A stretch of DNA of 32,000 nt from Halomicrobium mukohataei DSM 12286. GTDB taxonomy: Archaea; Halobacteriota; Halobacteria; Halobacteriales; Haloarculaceae. The notes below the pieces were generated by a model that saw nothing but the letters and a program-made list of their open reading frames with translations, was not told the DNA's origin and did no database searches. The position numbers were made by a program, and so were the translations under genes. The stretch covers positions 150,001 through 182,000 of the forward strand of contig NC_013201.1 of assembly GCF_000023965.1 (NCBI RefSeq), given 5' to 3'. Of the stretch, positions 1-18,377 are shown in pieces. Every line of letters begins with the position of its first letter. The stretch's first letter is position 1.

Positions 1-154
1 GAACAGGAGGATGCTCTCACGGAACTGCCGATGGTAGTTCTAATTCCCACGGGAAAGTAACGCCGGCGGTCTGGGCTTTGACAAGAATCGTTCGAGACGC
101 TTTAGCAACCGCCTCTCGAAATTCACACTACTGGAAAAGTCACCAGAGTAGCTG

Positions 155-346
155 TTAGCAGCAGTCGCTTCCAGCGCCGCAGACCTCACCGTACTCGAGA
201 CCAATCCCGTCGTTGATCGCTTCGTTACACTCGGTCAGCAGTGACTCGAACTCGTCAGCAGTCACCTCCGACTGTGCCATATCGAGGTCTTCACCGAGCG
301 CTTCAGCGGCGATCAGAACTTCATCGTCGGAGGCGCTCAACAGCAC
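155..346 (-). CDS. Small acidic protein ending in Cys-Cys; homologous to the C-terminal module of the upstream YlbF/YmcA-like ORF
   Basis: 63-codon ORF with a GTG start that overlaps the end of ORF 337-705 by 10 nt. The tail LLTECNEAINDGIGLEYGEVCGAGSDCC aligns with LLEQTNDVISEQIRREFAQSSGGGCC of the upstream ORF. Same strand and operon as arsDA. An internal ATG (MAQSEV...) is an alternative start. Confidence 0.45.
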   Translation of the reverse strand: MLLSASDDEVLIAAEALGEDLDMAQSEVTADEFESLLTECNEAINDGIGLEYGEVCGAGSDCC

Positions 347-705
347 CCACCTCCGGATGACTGCGCGAACTCCCGCCTGATCTGTTCGCTGATCACATCG
401 TTCGTCTGTTCGAGTAGCGCCACGAGTTCCTCTTGCGCTGCCCGATGCTGTTGGATCGTCTCGTTGTTCGAGAGTTCGGTCTGTAGCTCCTGTAATTCGC
501 TCATGACTGACGAGTCGAACTCGTCTCGCTGTAACTCCTGTTGTTTTTCTTGGTACGTTTCGAGCAGAGACTGCGCCTCCTCGTCGGCCTCGAGTTGTTC
601 GCTCGCGTCGACGAACTGCTGATAGGTCTCCGAGTCTCGGAGCGTCTCGATGAACGCCTGCAACGACGCTTCGACGGCTGGTGCCTCCGATACACTTTCG
701 CTCAC
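337..705 (-). CDS. YlbF/YmcA-like (Com_YlbF-type) acidic helical protein with a C-terminal GGGCC
   Basis: 122 aa. The GTG start overlaps the arsA TGA stop (GTGA), implying translational coupling. Glu/Gln-rich heptad-like sequence (QQFVDASEQLEADEEAQSLLETYQEKQQELQ). The Gly-Cys tail recalls the Cys/Gly-rich C terminus of Bacillus YlbF. Confidence 0.6.
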   Translation of the reverse strand: MSESVSEAPAVEASLQAFIETLRDSETYQQFVDASEQLEADEEAQSLLETYQEKQQELQRDEFDSSVMSELQELQTELSNNETIQQHRAAQEELVALLEQTNDVISEQIRREFAQSSGGGCC

Positions 706-2633
706 GACACCGTCACCTCCTGTTCCGTCTCCGTAGTGAGTGCGTCCAGTCCGGTGATCTCTTCACCGAACGCGCGTAGTTCGTCCAGTCCAATCGGCTC
801 GTCCTGACGTAGCGGGGCGAGCATCATCGGCACGTCGAACCGATCGTTGATCTTGCCGAGGTACTCCGCCTGCTGAGCGCGGCGATTCTCGAAGAAGGCG
901 TTGTCACCGTATTCCTCGGGGAGCAGGTAGTTTGTGACCACCAGCGAAGTCTCGATCCCGACTTGATCTTTGAGGTCTGCGGCGGCCCGGTAGGCTTCCA
1001 TCATTGGGGTGTACTCAGGGTACATCACGAACGCGAACGTACTCCGTTCGGGGTCCTTCATCGTCTCGATGACCTCGTCGTACTGGTCGCCTTTCGCGGG
1101 CGCGGCACCCTTTGTCAGCGAACCCAAATCCATGAAGCCCTTCCAGTCGGAGGGGAGTTCGAGCAGTCGGAGCGTGTGTCCCGTGGGAGCGGTGTCAAAG
1201 ACGACGACATCGTAGCCGTCTTCGTCGAAGTAGCTCACGAACTTCTCGAGCGCGGCCATCTCTTCGGCACACGGAGACTCCAGTTCCTCTTCGACGTTCG
1301 CAATCGCCGCGTCCACGTCAATCTGTGTGTCCTCCTTGTCTTCGTACATCTCGGTGACGTGGTCGAGGACCTGCGTGCGGTACTCTTCGAGCGCTTTCTC
1401 CTGGTCAATCCGTGCCGCGTCGAGGTTTGCTTGACCGACCGATGTCGGCTCGTGGCCGACCGGTTCGCCGAAGATATCCTCAAGATGGGCGGCCGGGTCA
1501 GTTGTGACGACGAGCGTTTCGTGGCCAGCTTCGGCGAGTTTCGTCGCCGCCGTCGAGGCAATCGTACTCTTGCCGACGCCGCCCTTCCCAGTGAAGAAAA
1601 GATACCGCGTCTCATCGCCCGGTTGGAGCTGGTCGGCGACCGCCTCGGAGTCAGCCATCGACTCGAAGTCGACCGCAGTCTCTGCGTCTACATCGGTCGC
1701 CGTCCCAACGTCGACGGTCGCCTCGTCGCCGTCGTACAGTACGCCACCGACATCTGCGAGTAGATCGAGCCCTGCGATTTCGCCCGGCTGGAGTGGGTAC
1801 GTCGCCATCGCGTCGGCGTCGAACTCCGTCCGTGCGCGCTCGATAACTGCCTGCTCGTCTGCGCGTTTCCCCTGGAAGAACGGATCCTCACACACCGGCT
1901 CGGGGAGATAGCCGTTGATGATCAGCAGTTGGGACTCGATCCCAAGCTCGCCGAGGTCTCTTGCACTGCGCTCGATTTCGTCGATTGAGGAGTCCTCGGG
2001 CTTGCCGACGAACGCGAAGGACGTACGCTCGCCGTCTTGGAGCGTGTCGATGGCACGCTCGTAGTCCTGTTTGCGCTCTTCCATCGAGGCTGCCGGCCCA
2101 ATACAGGTCGAGCCGCCTTTCTCCAGTTCAGCGTTCCAGTCGGAGGGCAGCTCCATCAACCGGATCGTGTGACCGGTCGGCGCCGTGTCGAAGACGACCA
2201 CATCGTACTCGGGGCAGTCCATGAAGTCTACGAAGTTGTCGAAGGCGGCGATCTCTTCGACACACGGGCTGTTGAGTTGCTCCTCGACGGTTTCGAGTTG
2301 CTCGTCGTCGAGCAATTGCTGCATCGGTTCAATCGTCTCCTGTCGATACTCCTCGGCCGCCGTGTCTGGGTCGATCTCGATGGCCGAGAGGTTCTCGATG
2401 TCGTCGATAGCAGTGACATCGTGACCGATCTCCTGGCCGAAGATATCCGAGAGGTTCGGTGCAGGATCGGTCGTCACCAGCAGCGTCTCGTAGTCGTTGT
2501 CCGCGAGCCAAGTCGCCGTCGCGCAGCTCACAGTACTCTTACCGACACCGCCTTTGCCGCTGAAAAAGACGAATTCGGTCTCCTTGCTGGTCGGCTCTAC
2601 GACCGCTCGTACGTCGGGGGGCGTCGTGCTCAT
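702..2633 (-). CDS. arsA: Arsenite-stimulated ATPase ArsA (two-domain)
   Basis: 643 aa with two homologous halves. Each half has a deviant Walker A (GKGGVGKST at residues about 27 and about 350), a DTAPTGHT signature in both halves, and TTDPA motifs. It lies immediately downstream of arsD. Confidence 0.95.
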   Translation of the reverse strand: MSTTPPDVRAVVEPTSKETEFVFFSGKGGVGKSTVSCATATWLADNDYETLLVTTDPAPNLSDIFGQEIGHDVTAIDDIENLSAIEIDPDTAAEEYRQETIEPMQQLLDDEQLETVEEQLNSPCVEEIAAFDNFVDFMDCPEYDVVVFDTAPTGHTIRLMELPSDWNAELEKGGSTCIGPAASMEERKQDYERAIDTLQDGERTSFAFVGKPEDSSIDEIERSARDLGELGIESQLLIINGYLPEPVCEDPFFQGKRADEQAVIERARTEFDADAMATYPLQPGEIAGLDLLADVGGVLYDGDEATVDVGTATDVDAETAVDFESMADSEAVADQLQPGDETRYLFFTGKGGVGKSTIASTAATKLAEAGHETLVVTTDPAAHLEDIFGEPVGHEPTSVGQANLDAARIDQEKALEEYRTQVLDHVTEMYEDKEDTQIDVDAAIANVEEELESPCAEEMAALEKFVSYFDEDGYDVVVFDTAPTGHTLRLLELPSDWKGFMDLGSLTKGAAPAKGDQYDEVIETMKDPERSTFAFVMYPEYTPMMEAYRAAADLKDQVGIETSLVVTNYLLPEEYGDNAFFENRRAQQAEYLGKINDRFDVPMMLAPLRQDEPIGLDELRAFGEEITGLDALTTETEQEVTVS

Positions 2634-2636
2634 GCG

Positions 2637-2966
2637 TTAGGCCTCCTGGGTCGGAGTGGCTGTTTCGAGTGCTGCCGCGAGTTCGTCGTACGAGAGGTAC
2701 TCGGACTTGCCGACAATTTCGTCGTCAACGACAGTGATCGGCAAAATCGATGGACCGTGTTCCTCGACGAGGTCGGAGATAGACTCGGTCTCGAGGAACT
2801 GATCGATATTGTGCTGCATGTTCGCCCGAGAGATATCGACATCTTCGAATTCCGCTTCGAGCTGATCGAGTGCGGCGCTGACCTCGACGAGTTCGTCGTC
2901 GGGGTCAGGTCCACAAACGCCGGTGGAACAACACATCGCTTCTTCGTACAGGGAAAGTTCAGTCAT
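2637..2966 (-). CDS. arsD: Arsenic metallochaperone / weak repressor ArsD
   Basis: 109 aa. The N-terminal MCCSTGVCGP carries the Cys12-Cys13-Cys18 As(III)-binding triad typical of ArsD. The stop is 3 nt upstream of the arsA start. Confidence 0.9.
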   Translation of the reverse strand: MTELSLYEEAMCCSTGVCGPDPDDELVEVSAALDQLEAEFEDVDISRANMQHNIDQFLETESISDLVEEHGPSILPITVVDDEIVGKSEYLSYDELAAALETATPTQEA

Positions 2967-3285
2967 TGAGCTGAAAGGTGTGTTTTCTCAATTGTCTGGC
3001 CATCAGTCCGGCGGTCACCGATCATATCGCAGCTGTTGTTCCATCGCATTCAATTGAGTACTTGTTCAATCATGCTCATAAGATCTTCGGCTCGCACAGA
3101 CGTAGTCAATACTCTAATCGTGCTAAAGGCACTGAACAGATGGTTCTTCTCGTCGAGTCGTTTGCCTCTGTCGGTAGATCTCCAGTATATCTCACGGAGT
3201 GCTAAAGCAACAAGACTGGAATCGAGTGTCCCAGTGCATAAGCCACTCCAGAATACTTAATTCGTTATCTGCTTAATCGATTTGT

Positions 3286-3678
3286 ATGTCATCAACCGAG
3301 CGGCTACAACGGTACCTTGCCGACGAGCGAGGTGGGTGTGGCGACGAAGAGGTATGCCAGCGTCTATCGGAACTCGAAGAGATAGACGCGGCCGCAGGTG
3401 GGCCTGCACTGGACGAAGACGTTGAATTGCTATCCGCGCTTGCGAACGAGACTCGGTACAAGATTGTTCGTATCCTCCATATCGCTGGCGAAGAGCTCTG
3501 CGTCTGTGAATTTGCGCCGCTGCTCGACGTCAGTGACAGCGCAATTAGCCATGCACTGTCCCAACTCACCGACGCTGGACTCATCACTCGCCGAAAAGAG
3601 GGGAAGTGGCGGAAATATCGAGCGACAGCACGAGCCAACGCCGTTCTCATCGCTCTGGATGGATCGCGGGAGCTATGA
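3286..3678 (+). CDS. arsR: ArsR/SmtB-family metalloregulator
   Basis: 130 aa. It has the ELCVCEF metal-binding motif followed by a winged HTH (SDSAISHALSQLTDAGLITRRKEGKWRKY). Divergent from arsDA across a lower-GC, roughly 320-nt intergenic region. Confidence 0.85.
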   Translation: MSSTERLQRYLADERGGCGDEEVCQRLSELEEIDAAAGGPALDEDVELLSALANETRYKIVRILHIAGEELCVCEFAPLLDVSDSAISHALSQLTDAGLITRRKEGKWRKYRATARANAVLIALDGSREL

Positions 3679-3865
3679 TTGTACACAGGAGCGATCAATA
3701 CGGCCCGTTGATGAACTAACACCCCATTGCTTGGTCGGACGATATTTTCGAGTGAGCCGTCAGCAATGGGTAATAGCCATCGTTCGCTATGATAGATGAT
3801 GGGTGATATATCCAAGAACAATCCACAGAGGAGTGCTTGACACGGTATAATAAAGGAGACAATCT

Positions 3866-4150
3866 ATGGTACAGCATTATTGGCGAAGTTTGGATTTGTG
3901 TGTACAGAATGTGGGGCGAAGCCAGATGTCAGCTGCGTTCGCAGAGCGGGAACGTGATCTACGAAAATCGGGGGATGAGTTCGAGATTCTCTCCGGCGGT
4001 ACACACCCCGCTGAACGCGTCCACGAGGAAGTAATCACAGTCATGCAAGAACGTGGTATCGACCTCTCTGACCGAACGCCTTGAGAGGTCTCGAATAACG
4101 AACTCGAATCGTGCGACGTCGTCGGCCTCGCCAAGTGCCCAGTAGTTGCT
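3866..4150 (+). pseudogene. arsC: LMW-PTP-type arsenate reductase ArsC, disrupted (in-frame TGA at 4082-4084, C-terminal half missing)
   Basis: CVQNVGRSQMSAAFAE is the CX5R(S/T) phosphatase loop. Reading through the TGA gives EVSNNELESCDVVGLAKCP, which still aligns with ArsC (..ADLVVTLCGDA..CP). No frame afterwards resembles the ArsC C terminus. Confidence 0.6.
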
Positions 4151-4362
4151 TCGTGGCGAACGAGCCCGCGATCTTCGAGTCGCGAGAGGACAGCACTGAT
4201 GCTCCCGGCGTTCACGTCTGTCGTGATCGCCCTTACACCTTCGCGGCAGACCACATCGACCGTTCGGCCCCGTTCTCGGGCGACAGCCGCGACGCAATCG
4301 ACCGGTTCCTCAACGAGCACGAACGGGAACTGCGCGAGCGGTACGAGACCTGATTGAGTCAT
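4135..4362 (-). other. Possible 5' fragment of a winged-helix regulator gene, abutting the arsC stub (coding strand ambiguous)
   Basis: The minus frame reads ...ITTDVNAGSISAVLSRLEDRGLVRHE, which is HTH-like. It then degenerates where it overlaps the arsC stub. The opposite frame 4111-4353 (+) also has GC3-rich codons, so the coding strand cannot be settled by eye. Confidence 0.25.
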
Positions 4363-4447
4363 GAAGCTTGTTCAGGGGGTTTAGCTTCAGTATCGAATGC
4401 ACTCCAGCACTCTTGACTGACTCACGCTGCCGGAATCCAACAGTAGC

Positions 4448-4792
4448 TCACAAATCGATCGTACTGAGACTTGCTTCGACGAGATTCTCGGGTATGAACG
4501 GTGACGTGAGTGTTGGTGAGTAGCCCAGTGCCCGTGCCAGGATGACGTGTGCAGTTGCCTGGACGGACATGATCTGGTCGACGACGTTGTCTTCGTGCAT
4601 GTCCTGTTCGTGGAACGAGAGCATCGACTCGATACCCGATTGGACAACGTCCGATTCGTCATCGCGGACGCCACGTGCAACTGATAGTATCGCTTGACCG
4701 TAGTCCGCGTGCTTCCCCAACGCTTGTTTAGCCAGGTGACGACACTGCTCAATGAAGTCGAGGATATCGATTTCCATGCCAGGTTCGATCAC
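4448..4792 (-). CDS. Hypothetical acidic protein
   Basis: 114-aa ORF with an ATG start and haloarchaeal-like codon usage. I recognised no family. Confidence 0.45.
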   Translation of the reverse strand: MIEPGMEIDILDFIEQCRHLAKQALGKHADYGQAILSVARGVRDDESDVVQSGIESMLSFHEQDMHEDNVVDQIMSVQATAHVILARALGYSPTLTSPFIPENLVEASLSTIDL

Positions 4793-4941
4793 CTCGGCTT
4801 CAGCCTTCTAAACCGGTGATACCAGTTGATAAGATCGCTCTTCAACAGAGCAGTTGTAAGGTCTCTTCAGTCAGGAGAGACAGCTATGCTTCGAAGGCAG
4901 CTAGGGGACCATATTGCTATGTGGAACGCGGTCGGATGCTA

Positions 4942-5303
4942 CTAGTCGAGGCCACCCCCGCTCTGGTATTCGGTCACCTGCGTCTCGAAATTCTCTTCCG
5001 CGTTCAGGTTGACTTGCTCGGACATCCACGGGAACGGATTGTCAGTCCCGTACTGCTCCGGTAAGTCGAGTTGTCCAAGGCGCCGGTCGGCGATGTGTTC
5101 GACGTACTCGGCGAACTGCTCGGCACTCATGCCAAGTATTTCGTCAGGATACGCCTCATAGGTGTAATTTTCTCTATCTCGACCGCTTCAGTAATCTGGT
5201 CGGCTACCTCGTCGCCGAACTCGTCGGTCCACACGCCGGGATTCTCCGACCAAATCTGTCTGATGAGATCCACTCCGAAGCCGTCAACGACCGAGGTACG
5301 CAT
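4942..5303 (-). pseudogene. Remnant (C-terminal third) of a second class I RNR beta subunit, frameshifted
   Basis: My minus-strand translation gives ..VDGFGVDLIRQIWSENPGVWTDEFGDEVADQITEAVEIEKI. After a 1-nt frame change near 5165-5175 it continues YTYEAYPDEILGMSAEQFAEYVEHIADRRLGQLDLPEQYGTDNPFPWMSEQVNLNAEENFETQVTEYQ. This is collinear with residues about 205-330 of the intact nrdB at 7063-8079. All iron-ligand regions upstream are missing. Confidence 0.7.
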
Positions 5304-5365
5304 ACGCCGAGGGGTAGGGTGGCGTAGTTTACATGGACCACTCTATCATACCGGCCGATGGGATA

Positions 5366-7060
5366 TCAGCTCTCACAGGCCTTGCATTCGAGGATGTCTC
5401 GGCTGAACTTCTGTGCGGCGTTCACGCTATGTTGGTAGTAGAGACTCTTCACCCCTTTCTTCCAGGCCTCGATGTAGAGCTGGTTGATCTCCTTGACGCT
5501 CACTTCGCTCGGATCGATCGAGACGTTCAGGCTCTGTGCCTGATCGATGTGTTTCTGCCGCTGCGCCGCCTGGTTGATGATCGCCATCTGTGGGATCTCG
5601 GCGAAGGTCTTGAACACCTCCTTCTCCTCGTCGGTCAGGCAGTCGAGGTGTTGCACGCTCCCGTCGTTCTGTGCGATGCTGTCCCAGACCTCGCGCTCGT
5701 CTCTGCCTCGCTCTTTCAGTATCGCCTCAAGGAACCGGTTCTTCTGCGTCGACTTCAGCTTCGCACCGTCGCGGACGAAGTAGTTCGATTTCAGCGGTTC
5801 GATGCTCGGACTGACCTGCCCCAGGATGACACTGCTGGATTTCGTCGGGGCCACGCTCATCGTCGTCGCGTTCCGGCGACCGTAGCCCTCGAGTACCTCC
5901 GGCTCGCCGAACTCGTCGGCGAGCCGACGACTCTCCTCGTAACTTCGCTCCTTGATCGTGCGGAAGATTGCCTCGTTTTTCTCCATCGCCTCCATGCTGT
6001 CGAACGGAATCATCTCGCTCTGGAGGTAGCTGTGCCAGCCGAGGACGCCGATGCCGACCGCCCTGTGCCGTTTCGCAAACCGTACTGGGCGTTCCATGAA
6101 CTGCGTCCCCTCCGCCTCTTGGATGAACTCCTCTATGACGGCGTCGAGGAACCGCGTCAGCGTCTCTACTGCGTCGGTGTCCTTCCACTCGTCGTAGTGG
6201 AGCGCGTTCATCGACGAGAGACAACAGACGAAACTCTCGTCTGGCGTGGCCGGCAGCGCGATCTCGGTACACAGGTTAGAGCCGTTGATCTCGTAGCCCC
6301 TGTCCTTGTAGACCTGTGGCTTCCCGTCGTTCATGTTGTCCCGGAAGATAATATACGGGACACCGATGTTGATCCGCGTCTCTATGATCTCTGCCCACGT
6401 CTCTCGCTTCTCTTCGTCGCCGTCGACCATCGCCCGGAACCAATCGTCACCGATGATGACGCCGTAGTAGATGTCCTGTACGGGGTCGCCCTCGGTCTTG
6501 ATGTTGAGCCACTCGTCCAGGTCGTCGTGTTCGACGTCGATGTACCCCGCGAACTGGCCGCGCCGCGTCTCGCCCTGGCTGACGACGTTGATGATCGTGT
6601 CGAACAGTTCGGTGAAGCTGTAGCTCCCATTGCTCTTGCCGTTGTTCGTGATCGGGCTACCTCGGGGCCGGATCTCGCCGAAGTACCCGCTGGTCCCGCC
6701 GCCCAGCTTGGTCATCTCGCCCACTTCGGCCTGCGTGTAGAGGATGCTCTCCATGTTGTCCTCCATGTAGCTACCGAAGCAGCTGATGGGCAGGCCCCGG
6801 TCCAGACCGAAGTTCGACCACACCGGACTCGCGAGGCTGTAGAAGCCCCGACTCATGTAGTCGTAGAACTTGTCCGCGAAGCCGTCGTCGTCCAGGATCT
6901 CCTCGGCTCGCTCCGCGATCTCCCTGACCCGCTCCTCGGCCGTGACGCCCTCGATCAGGTACCCCTCGTCGAGGAACGCCCGGCTGTCCTCGTTCAGCCA
7001 GTAGAACGGTTCCTCGTGCTGCTGGTTGACCTCGTCGAGTGCTGGTTCTGTTTGTACCAT
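5366..7060 (-). CDS. nrdA: Ribonucleoside-diphosphate reductase alpha subunit, short form without an N-terminal ATP-cone
   Basis: Motifs found: SNLCTEI active-site loop, PISCFGSY, VAPTKSSS, and a C-terminal CKAC redox pair. I place the start at MVQTEPALDE (ATG 7058-7060), 2 nt after the nrdB stop. The track's 7171 start would overlap nrdB. Confidence 0.9.
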   Translation of the reverse strand: MVQTEPALDEVNQQHEEPFYWLNEDSRAFLDEGYLIEGVTAEERVREIAERAEEILDDDGFADKFYDYMSRGFYSLASPVWSNFGLDRGLPISCFGSYMEDNMESILYTQAEVGEMTKLGGGTSGYFGEIRPRGSPITNNGKSNGSYSFTELFDTIINVVSQGETRRGQFAGYIDVEHDDLDEWLNIKTEGDPVQDIYYGVIIGDDWFRAMVDGDEEKRETWAEIIETRINIGVPYIIFRDNMNDGKPQVYKDRGYEINGSNLCTEIALPATPDESFVCCLSSMNALHYDEWKDTDAVETLTRFLDAVIEEFIQEAEGTQFMERPVRFAKRHRAVGIGVLGWHSYLQSEMIPFDSMEAMEKNEAIFRTIKERSYEESRRLADEFGEPEVLEGYGRRNATTMSVAPTKSSSVILGQVSPSIEPLKSNYFVRDGAKLKSTQKNRFLEAILKERGRDEREVWDSIAQNDGSVQHLDCLTDEEKEVFKTFAEIPQMAIINQAAQRQKHIDQAQSLNVSIDPSEVSVKEINQLYIEAWKKGVKSLYYQHSVNAAQKFSRDILECKACES

Positions 7061-10287: not shown

Positions 10288-11004
10288 GTGCTACTGGTGC
10301 TGGTCTCACTGGGCGTGACCGCGTGGGTCGCCCGCGATTCCGCGCCCGAGGTCCGCGGCGCGCTGGCGAACCTCCGGGCGGATACGGCGGTTCGGCTGGC
10401 ACTGTTCCGGTGGGGGGTCCCGATCGTCGTCATAGTGACGGTCTACCTGCTGGCGCTGGGCTTTGGCCTGCCGTGGGTCGCCGGCCTGGCGCTGTCGTTT
10501 GCCGCCGAGATCATTGCACGTGGCGTCTACATGCTGTTCCGCCGGCTGCGCTACCGCGTGAGTCAGTGGGAGAATCAGGAGACGACGCCGAGTCAGGTCC
10601 AGATCCGGGCCTATCAGCTCGACACGGCCGACGACGAGGTGCGGTACTACGCCGACGTGAACGCCGTCCAGCTCGCTCACGAGGATCCCGACGCCCTGAC
10701 CGATACCGTCTGTCGCGTCGCCGGCGACCTCTTCGAACGGGGTGAGACCGACCCCAGTGTCGCGCGGTCGTTCGCGACGGATCTGCTCCGGTATGGGATC
10801 GTCGACGTCGACGAAACGCGGTCGAGACTCGCCAAGACGGCCCAAGAGGAGGCCGAGGGTCGAATGCCCGCCGACGCCGAAACGATCGAGCGGCGGGTAC
10901 TCGAACGAGTGCCCGAACCGATCTGGGAAGAGACCAAGGCCGAGAAGCTGATCCGGCGGGGCAAGTGGTCGAAACGCGACGGACGACCCGTGTCTCGCGG
11001 ATGA
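10288..11004 (+). CDS. Membrane protein with an acidic cytoplasmic C-terminal domain; probably the 3' part of a frameshifted gene starting at 10086
   Basis: There are two TM segments, then an acidic domain. ORF 10086-10745 has GC3-rich, protein-like codons only up to about 10255. After that the coding signal moves into the 10288 frame, which is open from 10204. Confidence 0.5.
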   Translation: MLLVLVSLGVTAWVARDSAPEVRGALANLRADTAVRLALFRWGVPIVVIVTVYLLALGFGLPWVAGLALSFAAEIIARGVYMLFRRLRYRVSQWENQETTPSQVQIRAYQLDTADDEVRYYADVNAVQLAHEDPDALTDTVCRVAGDLFERGETDPSVARSFATDLLRYGIVDVDETRSRLAKTAQEEAEGRMPADAETIERRVLERVPEPIWEETKAEKLIRRGKWSKRDGRPVSRG

Positions 11005-11283
11005 TCAAGATAGTCGTGATCACCCTCGCCGTCTCTGATCGGTACCACAAGTAGCTACGGTAAGCGAACGGCTGATACGTGTTTGCGCCGTATCGGATTC
11101 GTGGGCGCGTCGTCGAAGTACTGCAGTGGGAAATGTGTCACTCATCGCGATTGCCGAATTTGGAGTGGCATAGAGGTGGAGAGCATCGGAATGCTAAGCA
11201 GGCGAAGGTTGGTATCACCATTCTCAAGCAAAAGCAACAGTAGGACGGCTATGTGTCCGCATATCAGTTCGTTCGGGGGCTGG

Positions 11284-11433
11284 CTACGGCACGAATTCCT
11301 GGTCTTCTCCCCAGAACTGAATTCCGATGTGATCTGTGATTTCCTCAATGAGATCGTCGGAAAGCGGATGGTTCGAGACGATCAGAGAACACCCGTTGTC
11401 GAGCACGAGATCGATCAACCACGACATTGCCAT
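11284..11433 (-). pseudogene. 3' fragment of a fourth immunity-like paralog
   Basis: ..LDNGCSLIVSNHPLSDDLIEEITDHIGIQFWGEDQEFVP aligns with L.DGSILLISKNPVDN.PPE.VSEHVGIQTMTDYS of the full-length paralogs. The N-terminal three quarters are missing. Confidence 0.6.
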
Positions 11434-11452
11434 CAACCGCCGGTTTCGGCAC

Positions 11453-12103
11453 TTAGCGTTCGAAATTCGTCTCAGAGACGCGTTCTTCCGGGTAGTCTTG
11501 CCAGGAACGGATCCCGACGTGGTCTGCGATGTCGTCGAGTGGCTCTGGGTGGTCTGGCATGTGCTTCGAGACGAGGATAATACTCCCGTCTGGGAGTTGC
11601 TCACTGATGTCGGCCGGCGCGGTCAACAGACGCTGTTCACCGATGGTCTCGACCTCCGCTGGCGGGAAGATATCCAGCCACGTCAGGAACTGTCGATCCG
11701 ACGGCGGCAGGTCGTCCGCCGACACCGGGTGATGCATCGGCTGGTGTTCCTCGATACCGTACGACGCCTTTGCGGCGGTCTCGATTTCTGCGTACGTTTC
11801 CTTTGCCGTCTTGATGAGTGCATCGTAGGCCTTCGTTGCGTCTACTACAGTTTCAGGCTCAAAGGTATCGTACGGCGCAAATATCCGGACGATTGTTCCT
11901 TCCGGGTATTCATGCCCTGTCCCCTCTGAGATGACGATTTTAAACCTGAGAGCATCTTTCTTAACATTTATACGCTTTTCTCCGAACGCATTTTCGCCAT
12001 TATTTCGGAGCGTGTACTGATCGCTACTATCGGTGTCTGATAGCAGTCTCTGGTAGGTCTCCTCTACTGGTAGACTTTTGGCGACGTGAACTATTCTTGC
12101 CAT
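11453..12103 (-). CDS. Immunity-like acidic protein, paralog C (divergent)
   Basis: It shares the C-terminal block FLTWLDIFPPAEVETIGEQRLLTAPA...LPDGSIILVSKHMPD..DHVGI with paralogs A and B. ATG (MARIVHV..) at 12101-12103 is preferred over the track's TTG at 12118. Confidence 0.75.
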   Translation of the reverse strand: MARIVHVAKSLPVEETYQRLLSDTDSSDQYTLRNNGENAFGEKRINVKKDALRFKIVISEGTGHEYPEGTIVRIFAPYDTFEPETVVDATKAYDALIKTAKETYAEIETAAKASYGIEEHQPMHHPVSADDLPPSDRQFLTWLDIFPPAEVETIGEQRLLTAPADISEQLPDGSIILVSKHMPDHPEPLDDIADHVGIRSWQDYPEERVSETNFER

Positions 12104-12120
12104 CGTTCTGTTAAACAAAT

Positions 12121-12530
12121 ACTCCCCGATTAGGTCTATTGTCTAGTTTTCTCGTCTCTATGAAGCAGGAATCCGGCAGCTATCGGAATGTAGAGATAGC
12201 CAAGACGGAGCTATTCGTCGTAGAATTCGCTTCGGGAGACGTGATCGGAGTAGTCCGTCATCGTCTGGATCCCGACGTGTTCTGACACCGCTTCAGGCGG
12301 TGTATTGTCTACGGGATTCTTTGAGATAAGCAGAATGCTCCCGTCTGCGAGTGTCTCAGCGCGTGGCGCCGGCGCAGATAGGAGTGTTTCACGGCCGATT
12401 GCATCAACTTCTGCCGGCGAAAATATATCGCACCAGGTCAGGAACCGTCGCTCTTCCGGCGGGAACGACTCGCCACTGATAGGTGAGACCTCGCTTTGAT
12501 ACGTTTCTTCGCCGAATCCAACCTTTGGCG
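12121..12530. repeat. Duplicated cassette segment (3' half of the immunity-like gene plus about 90 nt of 3' flank), copy 2
   Basis: It aligns with 13136-13545 (offset 1015 nt) at high identity by eye. The match includes the non-coding flank ..tgaagcagga..agatagcca.gacgg.g.tattcgtcgtagaattc. Confidence 0.7.
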
Positions 12531-12885
12531 ACGTACTGAGCCCAGTGTATAAATCGACCGTCGTCTCAATCAACGCCTGAATTTCGTCTGTAGCAAGGAA
12601 GTCCGATTCCGAAGATTCGTCTATCTCTTGGCCAATGTTGAGATCCACTTCTATTAGCGTACAATCCGGATAATCCTGCAGTCGGAATCCATCAGTAATG
12701 TAGACACTCAAGATGAAGTCTCCACGAAAGAAGATTATTTCAGTCATATATTCGTATGCTTCTGGTAGTATATCCGCAACTTCATAGGCCTCATTCTGTT
12801 TCAGGTGTTCAGTAACCTGCTCGGACATATGGTCTCTCTCTTTTTTTGGAACCGCGACAATCACTCTGATCGCGTCTTCTAGCAT
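12211..12885 (-). CDS. Immunity-like acidic protein, paralog B
   Basis: 224 aa, starting MLED.. like paralog A. By hand alignment, 86 of the last 98 residues are identical to paralog A. Confidence 0.8.
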   Translation of the reverse strand: MLEDAIRVIVAVPKKERDHMSEQVTEHLKQNEAYEVADILPEAYEYMTEIIFFRGDFILSVYITDGFRLQDYPDCTLIEVDLNIGQEIDESSESDFLATDEIQALIETTVDLYTGLSTSPKVGFGEETYQSEVSPISGESFPPEERRFLTWCDIFSPAEVDAIGRETLLSAPAPRAETLADGSILLISKNPVDNTPPEAVSEHVGIQTMTDYSDHVSRSEFYDE

Positions 12886-12886
12886 G

Positions 12887-13072
12887 TTATCCTTGAGCAG
12901 CGGCTCGTACTGATGGTCGAGTGCCTACTGCAAAGCCTCTTTGATTGGGAGGATGTAGATCTGGTTGAGCGATATTTCTATCAGCTTCGACCTGTAGCCT
13001 TTCTTCATCAGTGACTGGTCCGATACGGATGTTAGATGACGAATCTTCTTTGCATACCAGTTTGTCATCCAC
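12887..13072 (-). pseudogene. Orphan toxin C-terminal tail fragment preceding paralog B
   Basis: This short ORF ends ..PPNQRGFAVGTRPSVRAAAQG. The toxin-tip ORF ends ..VPNSRGKLQSARRSSVEPATGD. Both are joined to the next gene by the identical 16-mer TAACATGCTAGAAGAC (stop, 1 nt, ATG). Confidence 0.4.
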
Positions 13073-13135
13073 TCTATCTCTGACGTAAAACTAATTTATA
13101 GCCCTGTTAGGCCGATTTTATATCATCCAAACCAC

Positions 13136-13545
13136 CTACGTTCTGTCAGGTCTAATATATTTCTTTCGCATCTGTGAAGCAGGAGAACGGCTGACTACCG
13201 GAATTCCAAGATAGCCAGGACGGCGTTATTCGTCGTAGAATTCACTTCGAGAGACGTGATCGGAGTAGTCCGTCATCGTCTGGATACCGACATGTTCGGA
13301 GACCTCTTCAGGCGGTGCATTGTCTACGGGATTCTTTGAGATAAGCAAAATGCTCCCATCTTCAAGCGCTTCGACGCGTGGTGCCGGCGCAGACAGGAGC
13401 GTTTCACGGCCGATTGCCTCGACTTCCGCCGGCGAAAAGATGTCGAACCACGTCAAGAAATCTCGATCCGCTGGTGGGAACGACTCGCCACTGATTGGGA
13501 TTCCCTCGCTCTGGTACGTCTCAATCCCAAATCCTACCTTCGGGA
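13136..13545. repeat. Duplicated cassette segment, copy 1
   Basis: Partner of 12121-12530; see that entry. Confidence 0.7.
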
Positions 13546-13894
13546 GTTCAGTTAGACGGTCGTACAGATCGGTCGCAGTCGCTACCATTATGTCCATGTG
13601 ATCTGTATTAAGGAAATCGCTCGTATTTTCAAGATCCCGGACGTTATTGTTTGTGAACTCTATAAGACAGTACCCTGGATAATGCTCGATCTTGTGGCCA
13701 TCGATGACTAAGATGCTCATTATTACGTCGCCAACGGAGAAAAAAACCTCGTGCTTGCCGTGAAAAGCGTCTCTCTGGACCTCTATAACCTTATTTTCAG
13801 TACTCTCTTTTAGTAGCTCAGTCACCTGACTGAGACCATACTCTGTCTGTTCTTGCGGTATCGCGATAACTGACCGAGCTTCGTCTTCTAGCAT
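13226..13894 (-). CDS. Immunity-like acidic protein, paralog A (immediately downstream of the toxin tip)
   Basis: ATG at 13892-13894 (MLEDEARSV..) lies 1 nt after the TAA of ORF 13896-14558. The protein is acidic, about 222 aa, with the conserved block FLTWFDIFSPAEVEAIGRETLLSAPAPRVEALEDGSILLISKNPVD. Confidence 0.8.
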   Translation of the reverse strand: MLEDEARSVIAIPQEQTEYGLSQVTELLKESTENKVIEVQRDAFHGKHEVFFSVGDVIMSILVIDGHKIEHYPGYCLIEFTNNNVRDLENTSDFLNTDHMDIMVATATDLYDRLTELPKVGFGIETYQSEGIPISGESFPPADRDFLTWFDIFSPAEVEAIGRETLLSAPAPRVEALEDGSILLISKNPVDNAPPEEVSEHVGIQTMTDYSDHVSRSEFYDE

Positions 13895-13895
13895 G

Positions 13896-14558
13896 TTAGT
13901 CACCAGTGGCGGGTTCTACCGAAGATCGACGTGCCGATTGAAGCTTCCCTCTACTGTTAGGTACTTCGTCGGTGTGGGTCACAGAGTTATCATTCTCAAT
14001 GTTGTCTAAACCCGCATTATTAATTTGTTTACTAGAGGGTGAGTCAAGGTATTTAGCGTCTGATTTTTGGCTTGTCAGACTATTTTTTACGTCGTCATTG
14101 AGATAGAACTCGTTAGCTTTTTCACCACTTTTTATTTTTATATCATTTATTCCATTAATTTTCTTGCTGTTTCGAACTTCTGAGAGAGCGTTATTCTTAT
14201 CGGCGATATTACTTGGGCGTATAATCATCTGACCATCTGGGGCTTTTCCGAGTGCTTGAAGAGCCTTGAATCTGATATATTTGTCGAGTATTTTCTCTGG
14301 TTTCACTCTACTATTAGTTGAGGGTGTATTTTTCGCCTCAACGTAATTCCCATTTGCTATCACGTCGAGGTCCATACTTTTTCCATTTAATGCCTGCGCA
14401 ACTCGACCTTTGGAAACCTCATCCGGCATATTATTTAGTATCTTCTGCTTTTCGCTATCCGTTAATTTAGTCCATGATGGATACTCGACATTTTTTCCTA
14501 TCGCTGTCACGTCTTCTCCCCGTTTCGATAGCGCTACACCCAGACGGGTCTCAAACAT
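13896..14558 (-). CDS. AT-rich Lys/Asn-rich module with a PD-(D/E)xK (restriction-endonuclease-fold)-like motif; putative toxin tip
   Basis: MFETRLGVALSKRGEDV...SMDLDVIANGNYVEAKN has the pattern E..., D-x12-E-A-K. One 60-nt line (14101-14160) has only 14 G+C by my count. A -1 shift in the A6 run at 14585-14590 would fuse this frame to the upstream ORF. Confidence 0.55.
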   Translation of the reverse strand: MFETRLGVALSKRGEDVTAIGKNVEYPSWTKLTDSEKQKILNNMPDEVSKGRVAQALNGKSMDLDVIANGNYVEAKNTPSTNSRVKPEKILDKYIRFKALQALGKAPDGQMIIRPSNIADKNNALSEVRNSKKINGINDIKIKSGEKANEFYLNDDVKNSLTSQKSDAKYLDSPSSKQINNAGLDNIENDNSVTHTDEVPNSRGKLQSARRSSVEPATGD

Positions 14559-14566
14559 ATATCCTT

Positions 14567-16084
14567 TTATAGGATCCCAATTCCTTTTTTAAATCCGTCT
14601 TGTGACGCAATATCTGCTATACTTTCTCTATATTCGATATCACTGCGTTGGAGATATCGCAGTTCGTCAGCAAAGCGGTCAATCTGGCCTCGATTCATAT
14701 ATGGTATGAATTTGCCGTTGATTGTCCGCCCTTCTCCATAGAATCCCACGACTGACCGTTTGATACTTAGGGCATACGGACCGTCGTAGGTGACCAAATA
14801 CTTTGCATTCTTTTTTCCAAGATTACTTGCCAGTGCTTTTGCTGTATTTAATGATACTTTGTCCGATTCTTCACCAATGCGGATGATCGCTGCGTCATAT
14901 TGCTTGAAGGCCGATGCGATTTTGACCCGATCATCCAATTTGAGATTCTTGGTCAGTCCCGACTTCCGGAGTGCTGCATAGGCCTCGTCGGACTTCCCTG
15001 GGTTGACTTTGGCCCACTTGCTACTGATTTTGATAGCCTTCGGTGCGTCAGATGCCAAGAAGGGAGCGAGACTGACAGCGTCGAGAGCTGCGTCCCCGTA
15101 ATCACCTTGTCCGGTATTCTGTGCGGCGTCACGGAGGTCCGCCGGAATGTCGATCACGGGGACTACTGATAGGCCAATCCAGCCGATCAGGTAGCCAGGG
15201 TTGTCGTTGTAACCGCTGGTGACCACACCGTCAGGCATTCCAGTTTCACCCAGCGCGGCCCCTTCGATCATCGCGCGGCCGTTCTCGTTCAGTGCTGCGC
15301 CGATATTCTCGGAGTCACAAGGATTCGGATCACGTTTGTCGGTGAGCCCGTCGGAGTCACTGTCGACGACCACCGCGCTCGGACAGAGAGGTCCGACTTC
15401 TTCAGCATCTCCGAGCCCATCTTTGTCAGAGTCGGTCAGGCTCGGGTTCGAAAACGACTGGGGGCCGTAGACCGCCCACTGTCCGTCAACACGGTAGAAC
15501 GTCACCTCACGACCGTCAATCAGCCCGTCCCCGTCGGTATCCGCCCTCGAACTGTCGAGTTCGAACTCGCTCGTCAGTGACCCGTCTTCCTTGAGCGTGG
15601 GGAGGACCCACTGCCGGTCCTCGACGGCGTCGATGACTCCATCGCGGTCGGTGTCCGTTCCCACTTCGAAGTGCGTGAATTGTGCTCTCCCCGGTGGCTC
15701 AAGTTCGATCGTAACGCGCTCCCCAGCAAACTCTCCGAGGTCAGCGCGGTGAGTGATGACAGGGGCGGTCAGACCACTTCCGGGATCGTTGTTGGCTGGT
15801 GTTGAGGCCGCTACACGCTTGCTGGTTCCAGACGAGTCACTGACAGTGAAAATGTACTGGCCACCATGATTCGTTCGCTCTTCACGTGGCCGCGCTCTAA
15901 AGTGCAGGAGCGTGTCCTCGGCGTCTGTGGAGAGCGTCGTCGTCGTTTTGAAACCGGGTTTACAACCAGTCTGGCCCTGTACTGCCGCCTCTGTGGGACA
16001 TCTATCTTCACCATCGATCAGTCCATCACCGTCGGTATCTGGCGCAGTTGGATCCGTGTCAGGCCGCCAGCCTTGTCTGAGAAT
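14567..16084 (-). CDS. Polymorphic-toxin-like protein, central part (TSP3 repeats, PT-TG-like segment, AT-rich C-terminal domain)
   Basis: The track ORF starts at 15664 (GTG). I translated 16084-15665 codon by codon and the frame stays open and contiguous with the upstream ORF. Repeats present: DTDGDGLIDGED, DTDRDGVIDAVE, DTDGDGLIDGRE, DSDKDGLGDAEE, DSDSDGLTDKRD. The PT-TG-like stretch is VVPVIDIPADLRDAAQNTGQGDYGDAALDAVSLAPF. Confidence 0.65.
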   Translation of the reverse strand: MLRQGWRPDTDPTAPDTDGDGLIDGEDRCPTEAAVQGQTGCKPGFKTTTTLSTDAEDTLLHFRARPREERTNHGGQYIFTVSDSSGTSKRVAASTPANNDPGSGLTAPVITHRADLGEFAGERVTIELEPPGRAQFTHFEVGTDTDRDGVIDAVEDRQWVLPTLKEDGSLTSEFELDSSRADTDGDGLIDGREVTFYRVDGQWAVYGPQSFSNPSLTDSDKDGLGDAEEVGPLCPSAVVVDSDSDGLTDKRDPNPCDSENIGAALNENGRAMIEGAALGETGMPDGVVTSGYNDNPGYLIGWIGLSVVPVIDIPADLRDAAQNTGQGDYGDAALDAVSLAPFLASDAPKAIKISSKWAKVNPGKSDEAYAALRKSGLTKNLKLDDRVKIASAFKQYDAAIIRIGEESDKVSLNTAKALASNLGKKNAKYLVTYDGPYALSIKRSVVGFYGEGRTINGKFIPYMNRGQIDRFADELRYLQRSDIEYRESIADIASQDGFKKGIGIL

Positions 16085-17065
16085 TCATTCAACTCTTGTC
16101 AGGTACCGAGCTTCTTGTCCATCAGTAAGTCCGTCGTCGTCAGTATCTGAAACCCAAGGGTCTGTGCGGATTTCTTGCTTGTTCGCGTACCAGGTGTCAG
16201 TTGGAGCCCCGCTCAGGTCTGTCTCTTCGAGCGTCAGACGATCGATCCGGCCTGGTGCATCGAAGTCTTCGTCGGGGCCTTCGACGCGGTCGAACTGGAA
16301 GTCGAAGTCGTCGGTTGCGTCCGTCAGCTCGATATCACCGTCGCCACTGCGGACTCGTGAAACCGGCACGCCGATCCCTTCGAGCTTCGCTTCCAGCACG
16401 GGCTTGAGATACTGCTCGTGACGATCGGTAATCGCGTACGTCTGCTCTGCGGTCGGATCGGTGTAGGTTCGGTTACGCTCGACATCGTCCGTGAGACCGT
16501 CTCCATCGGTATCTGCGGTAAGCGGGCTAGACGAGACTTGAAGGACATCGTCATTTGGCGTACAGTCTTCTCCCTTCCATTCGATGGTCCCGCTGTCCGT
16601 TTCTCGCTGCTGGCACGCTGAGTCGAAGCGGAGCGGTCTGTCAGCGCCGTCAGCTGAGACGACCGGAATATCCCAGCCCTCCCGTTCGATGTCGTCGTTC
16701 AGACCGTCACCGTCAGTGTCCCGCTTGTTCGGATCGCTGACAGTGTCATAGAATTCCCGATCTGTCGTCGGATGGGTCTCGGGATCGTCGAAGTCGAACT
16801 CCTGACTGTCAGTGAGGGTGTCTCCGTCGGTGTCGGCCGCAGTCGGGTCTGTCTCGATTCTCGTTCCGTTACCTACTAGCAGGCCGGCTTCTTCGCGGTA
16901 ATCCGGAATACCATCACCGTCGCTATCGGTCACCGACGAGGAGGAACTCTTCCACCATCTCCAACAACAGGGCCAGCCGACCGTCCAGTCGCTCTCAGAG
17001 ACACCACTGACTCGCCAGCGCTTCACCCCGATCCCACTCACACAAAGACCACGGATGGGGCCCAT
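16085..17065 (-). CDS. Polymorphic-toxin-like protein, N-terminal part (TSP3-type Ca-binding repeats), ending at an in-frame TGA
   Basis: 326 aa with five D-x-D-x-D-G-x-x-D-x-x-E repeats: DSDGDGIPDYRE, DTDGDTLTDSQE, DTDGDGLNDDIE, DTDGDGLTDDVE, DTDDDGLTDGQE. The same frame continues beyond the TGA at 16085-16087. I saw no clear signal peptide. Confidence 0.65.
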   Translation of the reverse strand: MGPIRGLCVSGIGVKRWRVSGVSESDWTVGWPCCWRWWKSSSSSVTDSDGDGIPDYREEAGLLVGNGTRIETDPTAADTDGDTLTDSQEFDFDDPETHPTTDREFYDTVSDPNKRDTDGDGLNDDIEREGWDIPVVSADGADRPLRFDSACQQRETDSGTIEWKGEDCTPNDDVLQVSSSPLTADTDGDGLTDDVERNRTYTDPTAEQTYAITDRHEQYLKPVLEAKLEGIGVPVSRVRSGDGDIELTDATDDFDFQFDRVEGPDEDFDAPGRIDRLTLEETDLSGAPTDTWYANKQEIRTDPWVSDTDDDGLTDGQEARYLTRVE

Positions 17066-17153
17066 CCAGATGGGTACGACGACCGCCTGCGCCTACTCTC
17101 GGAAACGATCGAATCACAGACAGTGTCGATACCGTCGAGAACGGAGCGGGCGT

Positions 17154-18101
17154 TCACTCGACCGCGTCCGTCGCGGCACCGTCTGGAGCGGGACTCGATC
17201 CCGTGTCGCTCGCGTTCCAGTACGCTTCGAGCGGGCCGTCGACACCGGTCAGCTGGACCCACGCCTGAGCGGTGATACCGAGAACGACGATCGAGACCAC
17301 CGCAGACTCCAGCGAGAGTATCGCCTGGCTGGCCAGGAACGTCGGCGACTGGAACGTCGCGTCCGGCGTGAGCTGTCCGAAAAGCAGGCTAAAGGCCATG
17401 TTCACCCCGTAGGGGACGACGAGTGCGAGTCCCAGTCGCAGTCGGTTGCCGGCGACGACGCGCCAGCTCCGAACGAACGCCGACGGGACCGACGCGTCCC
17501 GGACGACGATCTCGTGATCGACGAAGGCGAACACCACGACGACGACACCGATCGGAAGGGTCGCCAGCAAGAACACCGGGACCAGGAGCAGCGACGCGTA
17601 CCACGAGCCGACGAGTGTCGTCTGCAGTGATTCCGGGAGCACCAGGAAAACCCCGATCGCCGCCAGAAAGACGGCGATCATACTGAGCATCGTCAGAACA
17701 AATATGACAGCTATCTTCAACAGGGAGGCGACGAACAGCCGCAGCGTCGCCCAGCCGAGCGATCGAAAGACCAACTGTTCGGGGATGTGATCGCGCCCGT
17801 CGTCGACGAGCGCACGAACGGCGACCACCTGGATGGGAAGCGTGAGTATCCCGCCGGTGAGTCCACCCAGCAGCGCAGCGCCCGCCGACGCCAACGCCGG
17901 GAGCGCCGTCCCGGGTGCCGGCGTGTTGGCCGGTGTCATCGCCCCGCTCGTGCCGAGGGGAATGTACGTCGTCGCCAGCACCCACACGAACGCGCCCTGG
18001 AGGACGCTCGCAACGAAGAACGTCGCCACGAGGAGAGCGCCGTTTCGCGAGAGCGCGCGTGCGAGACCGCCGGTGATCGTCTGTCGAACGTGGAGGGCCA
18101 T
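17154..18101 (-). CDS. Polytopic membrane protein, paralog of 20200-20964
   Basis: It has about 6-7 hydrophobic segments. It shares FVDHEIVVRDASVPSAFVRSWRVVAGNRL with FYGQAIVVDGESAIAAFARSYRVVRANLL of the other gene. I prefer ATG at 18099-18101 (MALHVRQTI..), by analogy with MGVLQALQRT.. in the paralog. Confidence 0.7.
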   Translation of the reverse strand: MALHVRQTITGGLARALSRNGALLVATFFVASVLQGAFVWVLATTYIPLGTSGAMTPANTPAPGTALPALASAGAALLGGLTGGILTLPIQVVAVRALVDDGRDHIPEQLVFRSLGWATLRLFVASLLKIAVIFVLTMLSMIAVFLAAIGVFLVLPESLQTTLVGSWYASLLLVPVFLLATLPIGVVVVVFAFVDHEIVVRDASVPSAFVRSWRVVAGNRLRLGLALVVPYGVNMAFSLLFGQLTPDATFQSPTFLASQAILSLESAVVSIVVLGITAQAWVQLTGVDGPLEAYWNASDTGSSPAPDGAATDAVE

Positions 18102-18377
18102 GCCGCGGGATTTGTCACCCGCTGAGTTCAATTCTACGGACTGTCTCCGTGTCGGAACAGTCGACCGGCAGGAGCGTCTCCGACACAGATCCGTCCAGCG
18201 TGGCGAGGGCGGTCGGTGTCTGTAGGCCAGAAAGGGACCGCGGCGATCTGAGACTGCTGGCTGTCACTGTTTCAAAATATTCGCGACCACGGGGTCGCAA
18301 CAGTCTGTACAGACGTACAGCCGGCAGTATGAGCACCACCCGATTTTCCGAGCTGGAAAAGAAGTGGTAGCTATTAC

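Follow-up and report, generated by a model that had tools for sequence, protein, structure and literature searches.

Orphan toxin-tip and immunity arrays are found in the contact-dependent inhibition (CDI; cdiA-CT/cdiI) and Rhs loci of bacteria. At these loci a constant carrier is followed, beyond a sharp junction, by a variable C-terminal toxin; the cognate immunity gene comes first, and extra immunity genes and remnants come after it. Polymorphic toxin systems of archaea have been predicted for years and few of them have been characterised. Toxin-immunity pairs of haloarchaea have been validated in another system, namely that for type VI secretion (T6SS) in Halogeometricum (PMC11566945). TsiV proteins, which neutralise PD-(D/E)xK effectors via an exposed beta-sheet, are often encoded as tandem duplicates (PMC9635880). 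Here we describe a locus on the 222-kb plasmid (megaplasmid) of Halomicrobium mukohataei, studied within a stretch of 32,000 nucleotides (contig NC_013201.1, positions 150,001 to 182,000; hereafter the window). Three paralogous genes, A, B and C, and a fragment, D, lie there behind a toxin-like open reading frame (ORF). Positions 11000-17200 of the window are 100% identical to the plasmid NZ_CP039376.1 (strain JP60, 221,861 bp), in the record of which the RefSeq annotation of every gene in the locus is "hypothetical". The kind of locus is known; its toxin and immunity families appear to be unnamed and uncharacterised in a comparison that lay outside the 2019 archaeal census.

An earlier note on this DNA, made from its letters alone, had described A to D as immunity-like cassettes that diversify by duplication and recombination. 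This idea is supported by synteny, recurring arrays, counterparts of the paralogs in other loci, lower synonymous divergence in the 3' half of the genes and an abrupt junction between carrier and toxin. We consider it likely that the locus is a polymorphic toxin locus, in which A to C are immunity genes behind a broken gene for a PD-(D/E)xK DNase-type toxin and D is a decayed copy. A carrier with thrombospondin type 3 (TSP3) repeats would once have ended in a DNase domain of the PD-(D/E)xK type, which is now the ORF at 13896-14558. A would most likely be a cytoplasmic protein that binds and blocks the adjoining nuclease. B and C may have been kept or acquired by recombination, and would protect against related toxin alleles of neighbouring haloarchaea. 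Toxin specificity probably lies in the N-terminal half of the immunity protein, which varies fast. The C-terminal half would be a conserved scaffold, and repeated exchange of its DNA and 3' flank between copies would have left them mosaic.

The neighbourhoods of family members were surveyed in 13 independent loci outside the window; related-locus scans gave five genome and three metagenome loci. Such a survey had been proposed in the earlier note, to see whether homologues always follow toxin-like C termini. A tip recognised by the hidden Markov model (HMM) of the toxin was found directly upstream of a family member in nine of the 13 loci (L001, L004, L010, L013, L014, L015, L016, L019 and L021). 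Four of these, L015, L016, L019 and L021, were outside the training set of the toxin HMM, and scored E=1e-31 to 1e-42. In L001 the tip belongs to a TSP3-repeat protein of 646 amino acids (aa). In L004, on a haloarchaeal chromosome, it is part of a protein of >2,732 aa and is likewise fused to a TSP3-repeat protein. In the Logan contigs L015 and L016 the toxin is fused to homologous carrier segments. The other toxin homologues are from Natronobiforma (L010), Halobacteria contigs of metagenome-assembled genomes (MAGs; L013 and L014) and metagenomes (L019 and L021). The locus of Dictyobacter (L003) has a different tip, of the D...DxK type.

The junction between carrier and toxin is abrupt. A comparison of the window with L015 gives 94% identity over the last 70 codons of the carrier, where the proportion of synonymous differences (pS) is 0.15; in the nuclease domain behind it identity falls to about 70%, and the pS of 0.755 is saturated. 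Tandem copies of the immunity gene are present in L001, L003, L015 and L019, and truncated terminal copies in L014 (an extra fragment of 90 aa) and L015. In L015 the genes behind the toxin are, in order, a B-like gene (P0003), a C-like gene and a decayed D. In L016 a C-like gene (P0004) comes after the toxin; with the second gene of L015 it is the closest relative of C. Because B-like and C-like genes come first after other toxin alleles, A is the likely cognate immunity gene for the toxin next to it, and B and C are likely to be orphans. Judged from these sequences, the locus has two of the features by which Zhang et al. (2012) define a polymorphic toxin system: a constant carrier and a variable toxin with a sharp junction, and an immunity gene directly downstream that co-varies with the toxin, with arrays in five loci. 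It is in these respects like CDI and Rhs arrays. Unlike in those arrays, no recognisable orphan toxin-tip fragment precedes B or C by tblastn (in the 340-nt spacer between A and B, for example, no remnant was found), all extra immunity genes are from one family, and their conserved 3' half may itself be a recombination substrate. With the Halogeometricum T6SS (PMC11566945) the locus shares a haloarchaeal host and a C-terminal toxin that varies and has its immunity gene downstream; the carrier here is a TSP3-repeat protein and not an effector of a contractile injection system.

The same arrangement bears on whether the pair could act inside the cell as a toxin-antitoxin or addiction module. The free ORF 13896-14558 would then be made from its own ATG, with A as antitoxin, and would serve plasmid stabilisation or abortive infection with no secretion. 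The locus is indeed on a plasmid, the toxin is here a separate ORF with its own ATG, A starts 1 nt after the toxin stop codon, and delivery looks impossible since the carrier is broken twice. However, a large repeat protein carries the toxin as its C-terminal tip in every intact homologue (L001, L004, L015 and L016), and homologous coding sequence lies upstream of the ATG. Abrupt divergence between carrier and toxin and arrays of orphan immunity genes are typical of polymorphic toxins and not of type II toxin-antitoxin pairs, and PADLOC finds nothing at the locus. We regard such a module as unlikely.

A further possibility is that A, B and C do not inhibit the toxin but are accessory to it, for example as chaperones, as adaptors for export or as regulators of its transcription; roles of this sort have been proposed for additional TsiV/TsiT copies. 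There is a precedent in Salmonella bongori, where DUF3396 occurs as a tandem pair: only one copy neutralises the effector, and the other has been suggested to act in regulation (PMC9635880). In the present family, however, the toxin allele and the half that evolves fast vary together, and members stand alone, without a toxin, in L006 and L012, as expected of orphan immunity genes. Moreover, no DNA-binding or secretion-related domain was detected in these proteins by Pfam or NCBIfam. An accessory role therefore seems very improbable, and immunity is the function that we favour for A to C.

The toxin gene itself is disrupted at two places. The carrier frame, otherwise open for ~830 codons from 17065 to 14567 (minus strand, as are all features of the locus given here), is broken by an in-frame TGA at 16085-16087, which splits it into ORFs of 326 and 365 aa. 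The N-terminal part (16088-17065) has four TSP3 (Ca-binding) repeats, which match Pfam TSP3_bac at E=1.9e-9 and the CglD-like repeats of NCBIfam at E=1.9e-11. When A, B, C, the toxin and the carrier were scanned with Pfam, NCBIfam and PADLOC, only TSP3 repeats and DUF7847 were obtained. In the C-terminal part (14567-15664; WP_012807525.1), TSP3-like repeats are followed by a conserved pre-toxin segment (GYLIGWIGLSVVPVIDIPADLRD...) and then by a linker. This part shares 56% identity with the carrier of L016, and its guanine plus cytosine (GC) content is lower in the 3' 630 nt. The second disruption is a 1-nt frameshift beside an A6 run (GGATTTAAAAAAGGAATTGG), which parts the carrier from the toxin ORF and leaves the toxin in the -1 frame relative to the carrier. 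The two frames overlap at 14582-14600, and the tblastn alignment switches from frame -2 to -1 at 14582-14588. Across this junction a single frame, ...DGFKKGNWDAIKGYMFETR..., is kept in the intact homologues L015 and L016.

As causes of the frame change, programmed -1 frameshifting and slippage of the transcript at the A6 run were weighed and set aside, since the intact homologues differ just by one additional base. A mutation is the simpler explanation, slippage or recoding being formally possible. Both the TGA and the frameshift are identical in three datasets (L008, L009 and L018), and on this ground the gene for the carrier and toxin, and with it delivery, is probably dead in H. mukohataei while A, B and C are intact. 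Neither the double disruption nor the former fusion of the toxin tip to a TSP3-repeat protein had been seen in the earlier note.

These disruptions raise the question of whether the whole locus is a decaying relic, with a dead toxin, A to C as non-functional leftovers and a mosaic that reflects nothing but unequal past constraint. The TGA and frameshift in the toxin gene would agree with this, as would D, which has already decayed. On the other hand, A, B and C are full-length and intact. When B and C were compared with their L015 counterparts, the ratio of nonsynonymous to synonymous divergence (dN/dS) was 0.09-0.34, which indicates that both are under purifying selection. Immunity genes also stay useful against the toxins of neighbours after the own toxin has been lost. 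There is thus little to recommend a relic, and we give it a very small chance beside a working immunity array.

The pre-toxin segment, GYLIGWIG.SV(V/I)P(V/L)..(I/V)PADLRD, is at 15120-15200 (minus strand) of the window, at ~2850-2930 of L001 and at ~90-200 of L016. It is common to carriers with different repeat regions. It resembles a pre-toxin (PT-TG-like) trafficking domain, but Pfam gave no hit.

The toxin module extends over 13896-14585. Its annotated ORF, 13896-14558 (WP_012807524.1), has a GC content of 0.41, is rich in K and N and ends in a K/N-rich tail of ~95 aa. The frame is open and homologous upstream of the annotated ATG to about 14585. In an alignment of six divergent homologues (A10), D65, E74, K76 and K93 are invariant (ORF numbering). 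Five of the six rows also have an upstream glutamate in the context (Y/F/H)E, here E3; the remaining row begins downstream of it. E3, D65, E74, K76 and K93 are predicted to form the core of a PD-(D/E)xK nuclease, and the protein would act as one; the E/D/ExK/K layout is the classical arrangement of that superfamily (PMC3482391, PMC9635880). The (F/L)D and (V/I)EAK motifs of the toxin also recall the 'FDG, EAK' signature of Tox-REase-5 (PMC3482391). When six toxin sequences were searched against Pfam at E<=10, no hits were obtained, either to Tox-REase-5 and VRR_NUC or to any other family. A word-indexed search with the toxin returned only the toxin itself.

A, B, C and D are all encoded on the minus strand, as a four-gene array, in agreement with the earlier description. 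A (13226-13894) encodes 222 aa (WP_012807523.1), B (12211-12885) 224 aa (WP_012807521.1) and C (11453-12103) 216 aa from its ATG (WP_012807520.1), with an alternative TTG start at 12118. They match the family HMM at E=3e-48, 6e-51 and 3e-48, respectively, and are alignable over their full length. D (11284-11433) is a remnant of 49 codons that aligns to the C-terminal end of the family and corresponds to the 3' end of a fourth paralog. Its proposed status as a decayed terminal copy holds, with a match that is weak but above chance (tblastn E=0.001-0.002; hmmsearch E=2e-4). The match covers positions 176-208 of the subfamily HMM and is the fourth best of 573 ORFs in the window, the next having E>1. 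The same remnant is found at the same place in L015, there with an additional frameshift.

In the last 98 residues A and B share 86 identities, exactly the figure given before. Their N-terminal parts had been called only loosely alignable; they align better than that, with 46 of 124 residues identical (37%) and a single 2-residue gap. The common block FLTW.DIF.PAEV..IG...LL.AP....L.DGSI was confirmed in A, B and C. It is the best-conserved part of the wider family, in which W149, P155, V158, G162, P170 and G180 are at least 90% conserved among 150 representatives. At the DNA level a repeat of 300 nt joins A (13195-13494) and B (12180-12479) with 85% identity, varying from 0.7 to 1.0 per 30-nt bin. 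Beyond a 1-nt indel, another 34 nt are 74% identical (12144-12177 and 13158-13191). The similarity of A and B thus reaches about 65-90 nt past the stop codons, close to the ~90 nt that had been reported. The non-coding 3' flank of B (12144-12210) is in this way repeated after A at 13158-13225, with a per-bin identity of 0.77. The spacer between A and B (12886-13225) is 340 nt long with a GC content of 0.46, and its first ~68 nt are the repeated flank of A. Only the last ~48 nt before the start of B resemble the junction between the toxin 3' end and the start of A (repeat D5, 73% identical). The flanks of A (13195-13225) and B (12180-12210), both on the minus strand, carry a short imperfect inverted repeat, GGCTATC...GATAGC in B, which could be a terminator or a recombination-related element.

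The two halves of the immunity genes have diverged to different extents. Identity in the N-terminal part and in the last 98 residues is 37% versus 88% for A and B, 54% versus 93% for B and its L015 counterpart P0003, and 58% versus 90% for C and the second gene of L015. Synonymous sites follow the same pattern: pS in the last 98 codons and in the N-terminal part is 0.44 versus 0.755, 0.26 versus 0.52 and 0.40 versus 0.66 for the same pairs. In all three pairs dN/dS is <1 in both halves. Taken with the non-coding flank, which is conserved as well, the lower pS of the 3' half points to gene conversion or recombination there, on top of stronger constraint on the protein. A conserved antisense ORF was also considered as the cause of the low synonymous divergence and was ruled out, as antisense open stretches vary in frame and position across homologues.

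We tentatively suggest that the exchangeable cassette may be the toxin tip with the N-terminal specificity half of the immunity protein, instead of the tip with the whole immunity gene; we would not call this probable. Just as provisional is a two-armed model. One homology arm would be the conserved carrier end, and the other the 3' half of the immunity gene, which is constant, with ~65-90 nt of flank. If true, the constant half of the immunity protein would double as the downstream recombination arm. Archaea would then have a two-armed swapping mechanism for toxin and immunity specificity, and unequal exchange between the arms would lead to a tandem array.

A profile search with HMMER of 1.84 billion protein representatives gave 332 clusters of the immunity family at E<=1e-3, 57 of them at E<=1e-10; a word-indexed search had found five relatives only. 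Members are mostly 205-245 aa long. Conservation centres on the C-terminal block W..(I/L)F.P..V..(I/L)GRE.LLSAPAW.VE.L.DG..LLV....HLG. Archaea are represented among the named members by Halobacteria, a Micrarchaeota MAG and an uncultured archaeon, and bacteria by Dictyobacter (Chloroflexota). Of 92 members, none hits Pfam at E<=0.01, and for A, B and C nothing significant was found in Pfam, NCBIfam or PADLOC, the two listed matches (E=0.13 and 0.058) being far below the cut-off. The family is without a model in these three databases. A few long members are fused to HEAT repeats, and a Micrarchaeota protein of 681 aa has two family domains (representatives P0063, P0085, P0140 and P0018). These look like poly-immunity fusions. 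HEAT repeats are a reported immunity module for restriction endonuclease (REase) toxins (PMC3482391).

The earlier note had heard in the common block an echo of Imm52/DUF3396 and had proposed HMM and structure searches as a check. When 150 members were scanned at E<=5, the Pfam family TsiV (PF11876, "TsiV, Type VI immunity for VRR-NUC", formerly DUF3396) was matched by seven, the best at E=0.0012. HEAT-type repeats aside, it was the only family matched by several members; the other non-HEAT families in the top 25 were matched once. In P0134, positions 136-222 of the TsiV HMM align to the conserved C-terminal block of the family. This match scores 17.9 bits (E=0.0022), below the gathering score of 25 bits, and A, B and C gave no hit to TsiV at E<=1. 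As to Imm52, P0161 (A0A401ZF25) bears the UniRef name 'Immunity protein 52 domain-containing protein'; a Pfam scan of P0161 gave no hit, Imm52 (PF15579) was not hit by A, B, C or P0161 at E<=10, and it is not among the top recurrent families in the 150 members. What stands of the hint is therefore the set of sub-threshold TsiV matches and one UniRef name; neither an Imm52 HMM hit nor a TsiV structure was recovered. Remote homology of the family to TsiV/DUF3396 is plausible but unproven on these alignments, and its members score below the level of membership.

In its layout the locus is like TseV-TsiV, the T6SS VRR-Nuc pair (PMC9635880): a cytoplasmic alpha+beta protein, as predicted here for A, is encoded right after a toxin of the PD-(D/E)xK type, which is likewise a prediction here, and tandem duplicates are often present. 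It differs in the size of the immunity protein (about 220 aa here, ~330 aa for TsiV), in its hosts, which are archaea and Chloroflexota, and in the absence of a T6SS context. A toxin of the REase fold, predicted here, paired with an alpha+beta immunity protein is likewise found for Imm52 (PF15579, with conserved W, GT and F) and Tox-REase-5 (PF15648) (PMC3482391), although neither is hit here by an HMM at E<=10. The AlphaFold model of A (predicted local distance difference test, pLDDT, 81.7; predicted template modelling score, pTM, 0.82) has an alpha+beta fold with a beta-sheet and helices. Its top Foldseek matches are weak ones to AdoMetDC-like and spermine-synthase N-domains, at a template modelling (TM) score of about 0.3. 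Searches of PDB sequences with the queries A4, A6, P0134, the toxin ORF and the toxin profile gave nothing meaningful.

Several observations weigh against a polymorphic toxin locus of this kind. All function assigned here, namely the nuclease activity, its neutralisation, the pairing of each paralog with a toxin and the export of the carrier, is deduced from what the sequences show: homology, synteny, the catalytic motif, the pattern of divergence and the disruptions of the gene. The toxin is without a match in Pfam, NCBIfam, PADLOC or the sequences of PDB. Its family and the VRR-Nuc core of Pseudomonas TseV have no similarity as profiles (hhalign probability 0.4%), in a comparison that left out the PoNe, IdrD and Aave_0499 clades, and the single-sequence AlphaFold model of the toxin (pLDDT 40) is unusable for its fold. 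Foldseek searches with the model of A against PDB and BFVD recovered no immunity structure convincingly, and the solved TsiV (7DRG) is not in the top 50. For the carrier, which would have to be exported, neither a signal peptide nor any secretion machinery was identified. The lower synonymous divergence of the 3' half could partly reflect composition or another constraint, and not recombination. In L006, L011 and L012 a family member is present without a detectable toxin of this family upstream. In L011 (Halosimplex pelagicum, 1-5943) the family member comes after TSP3-repeat ORFs, the last of which (422 and 324 aa) miss the toxin HMM; a different toxin tip may be paired there with the same immunity family.

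The locus offers a concrete, testable pair, a compact toxin of predicted PD-(D/E)xK type and an immunity family of ~220 aa without a database model, which is seen mainly in Halobacteria and other archaea and has at least one Chloroflexota member. Three natural specificity variants would stand side by side in one genome, with matching toxin alleles in other genomes. This suits the locus to the mapping of toxin-immunity specificity determinants, and it could also show whether arrays of immunity genes alone persist once a cell has lost its own toxin. Informed predictions can take the place of eight "hypothetical protein" annotations.

No tRNA genes were found in the window. Two genes for DUF7847 membrane proteins lie on the upstream side, one at 17154-18131 (minus strand) and a further copy upstream of it (3568-4359 of L008). 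They are probably unrelated to the locus, since they are not kept beside the toxin in other loci. The toxin and immunity genes have a GC content of 0.41-0.54, the window as a whole one of about 0.60. An island of low GC content at ~11300-15200 (0.41-0.54, with surroundings of about 0.60-0.66) takes in the toxin, the linker before it and the immunity array. Its composition is consistent with horizontal acquisition of the toxin/immunity module.

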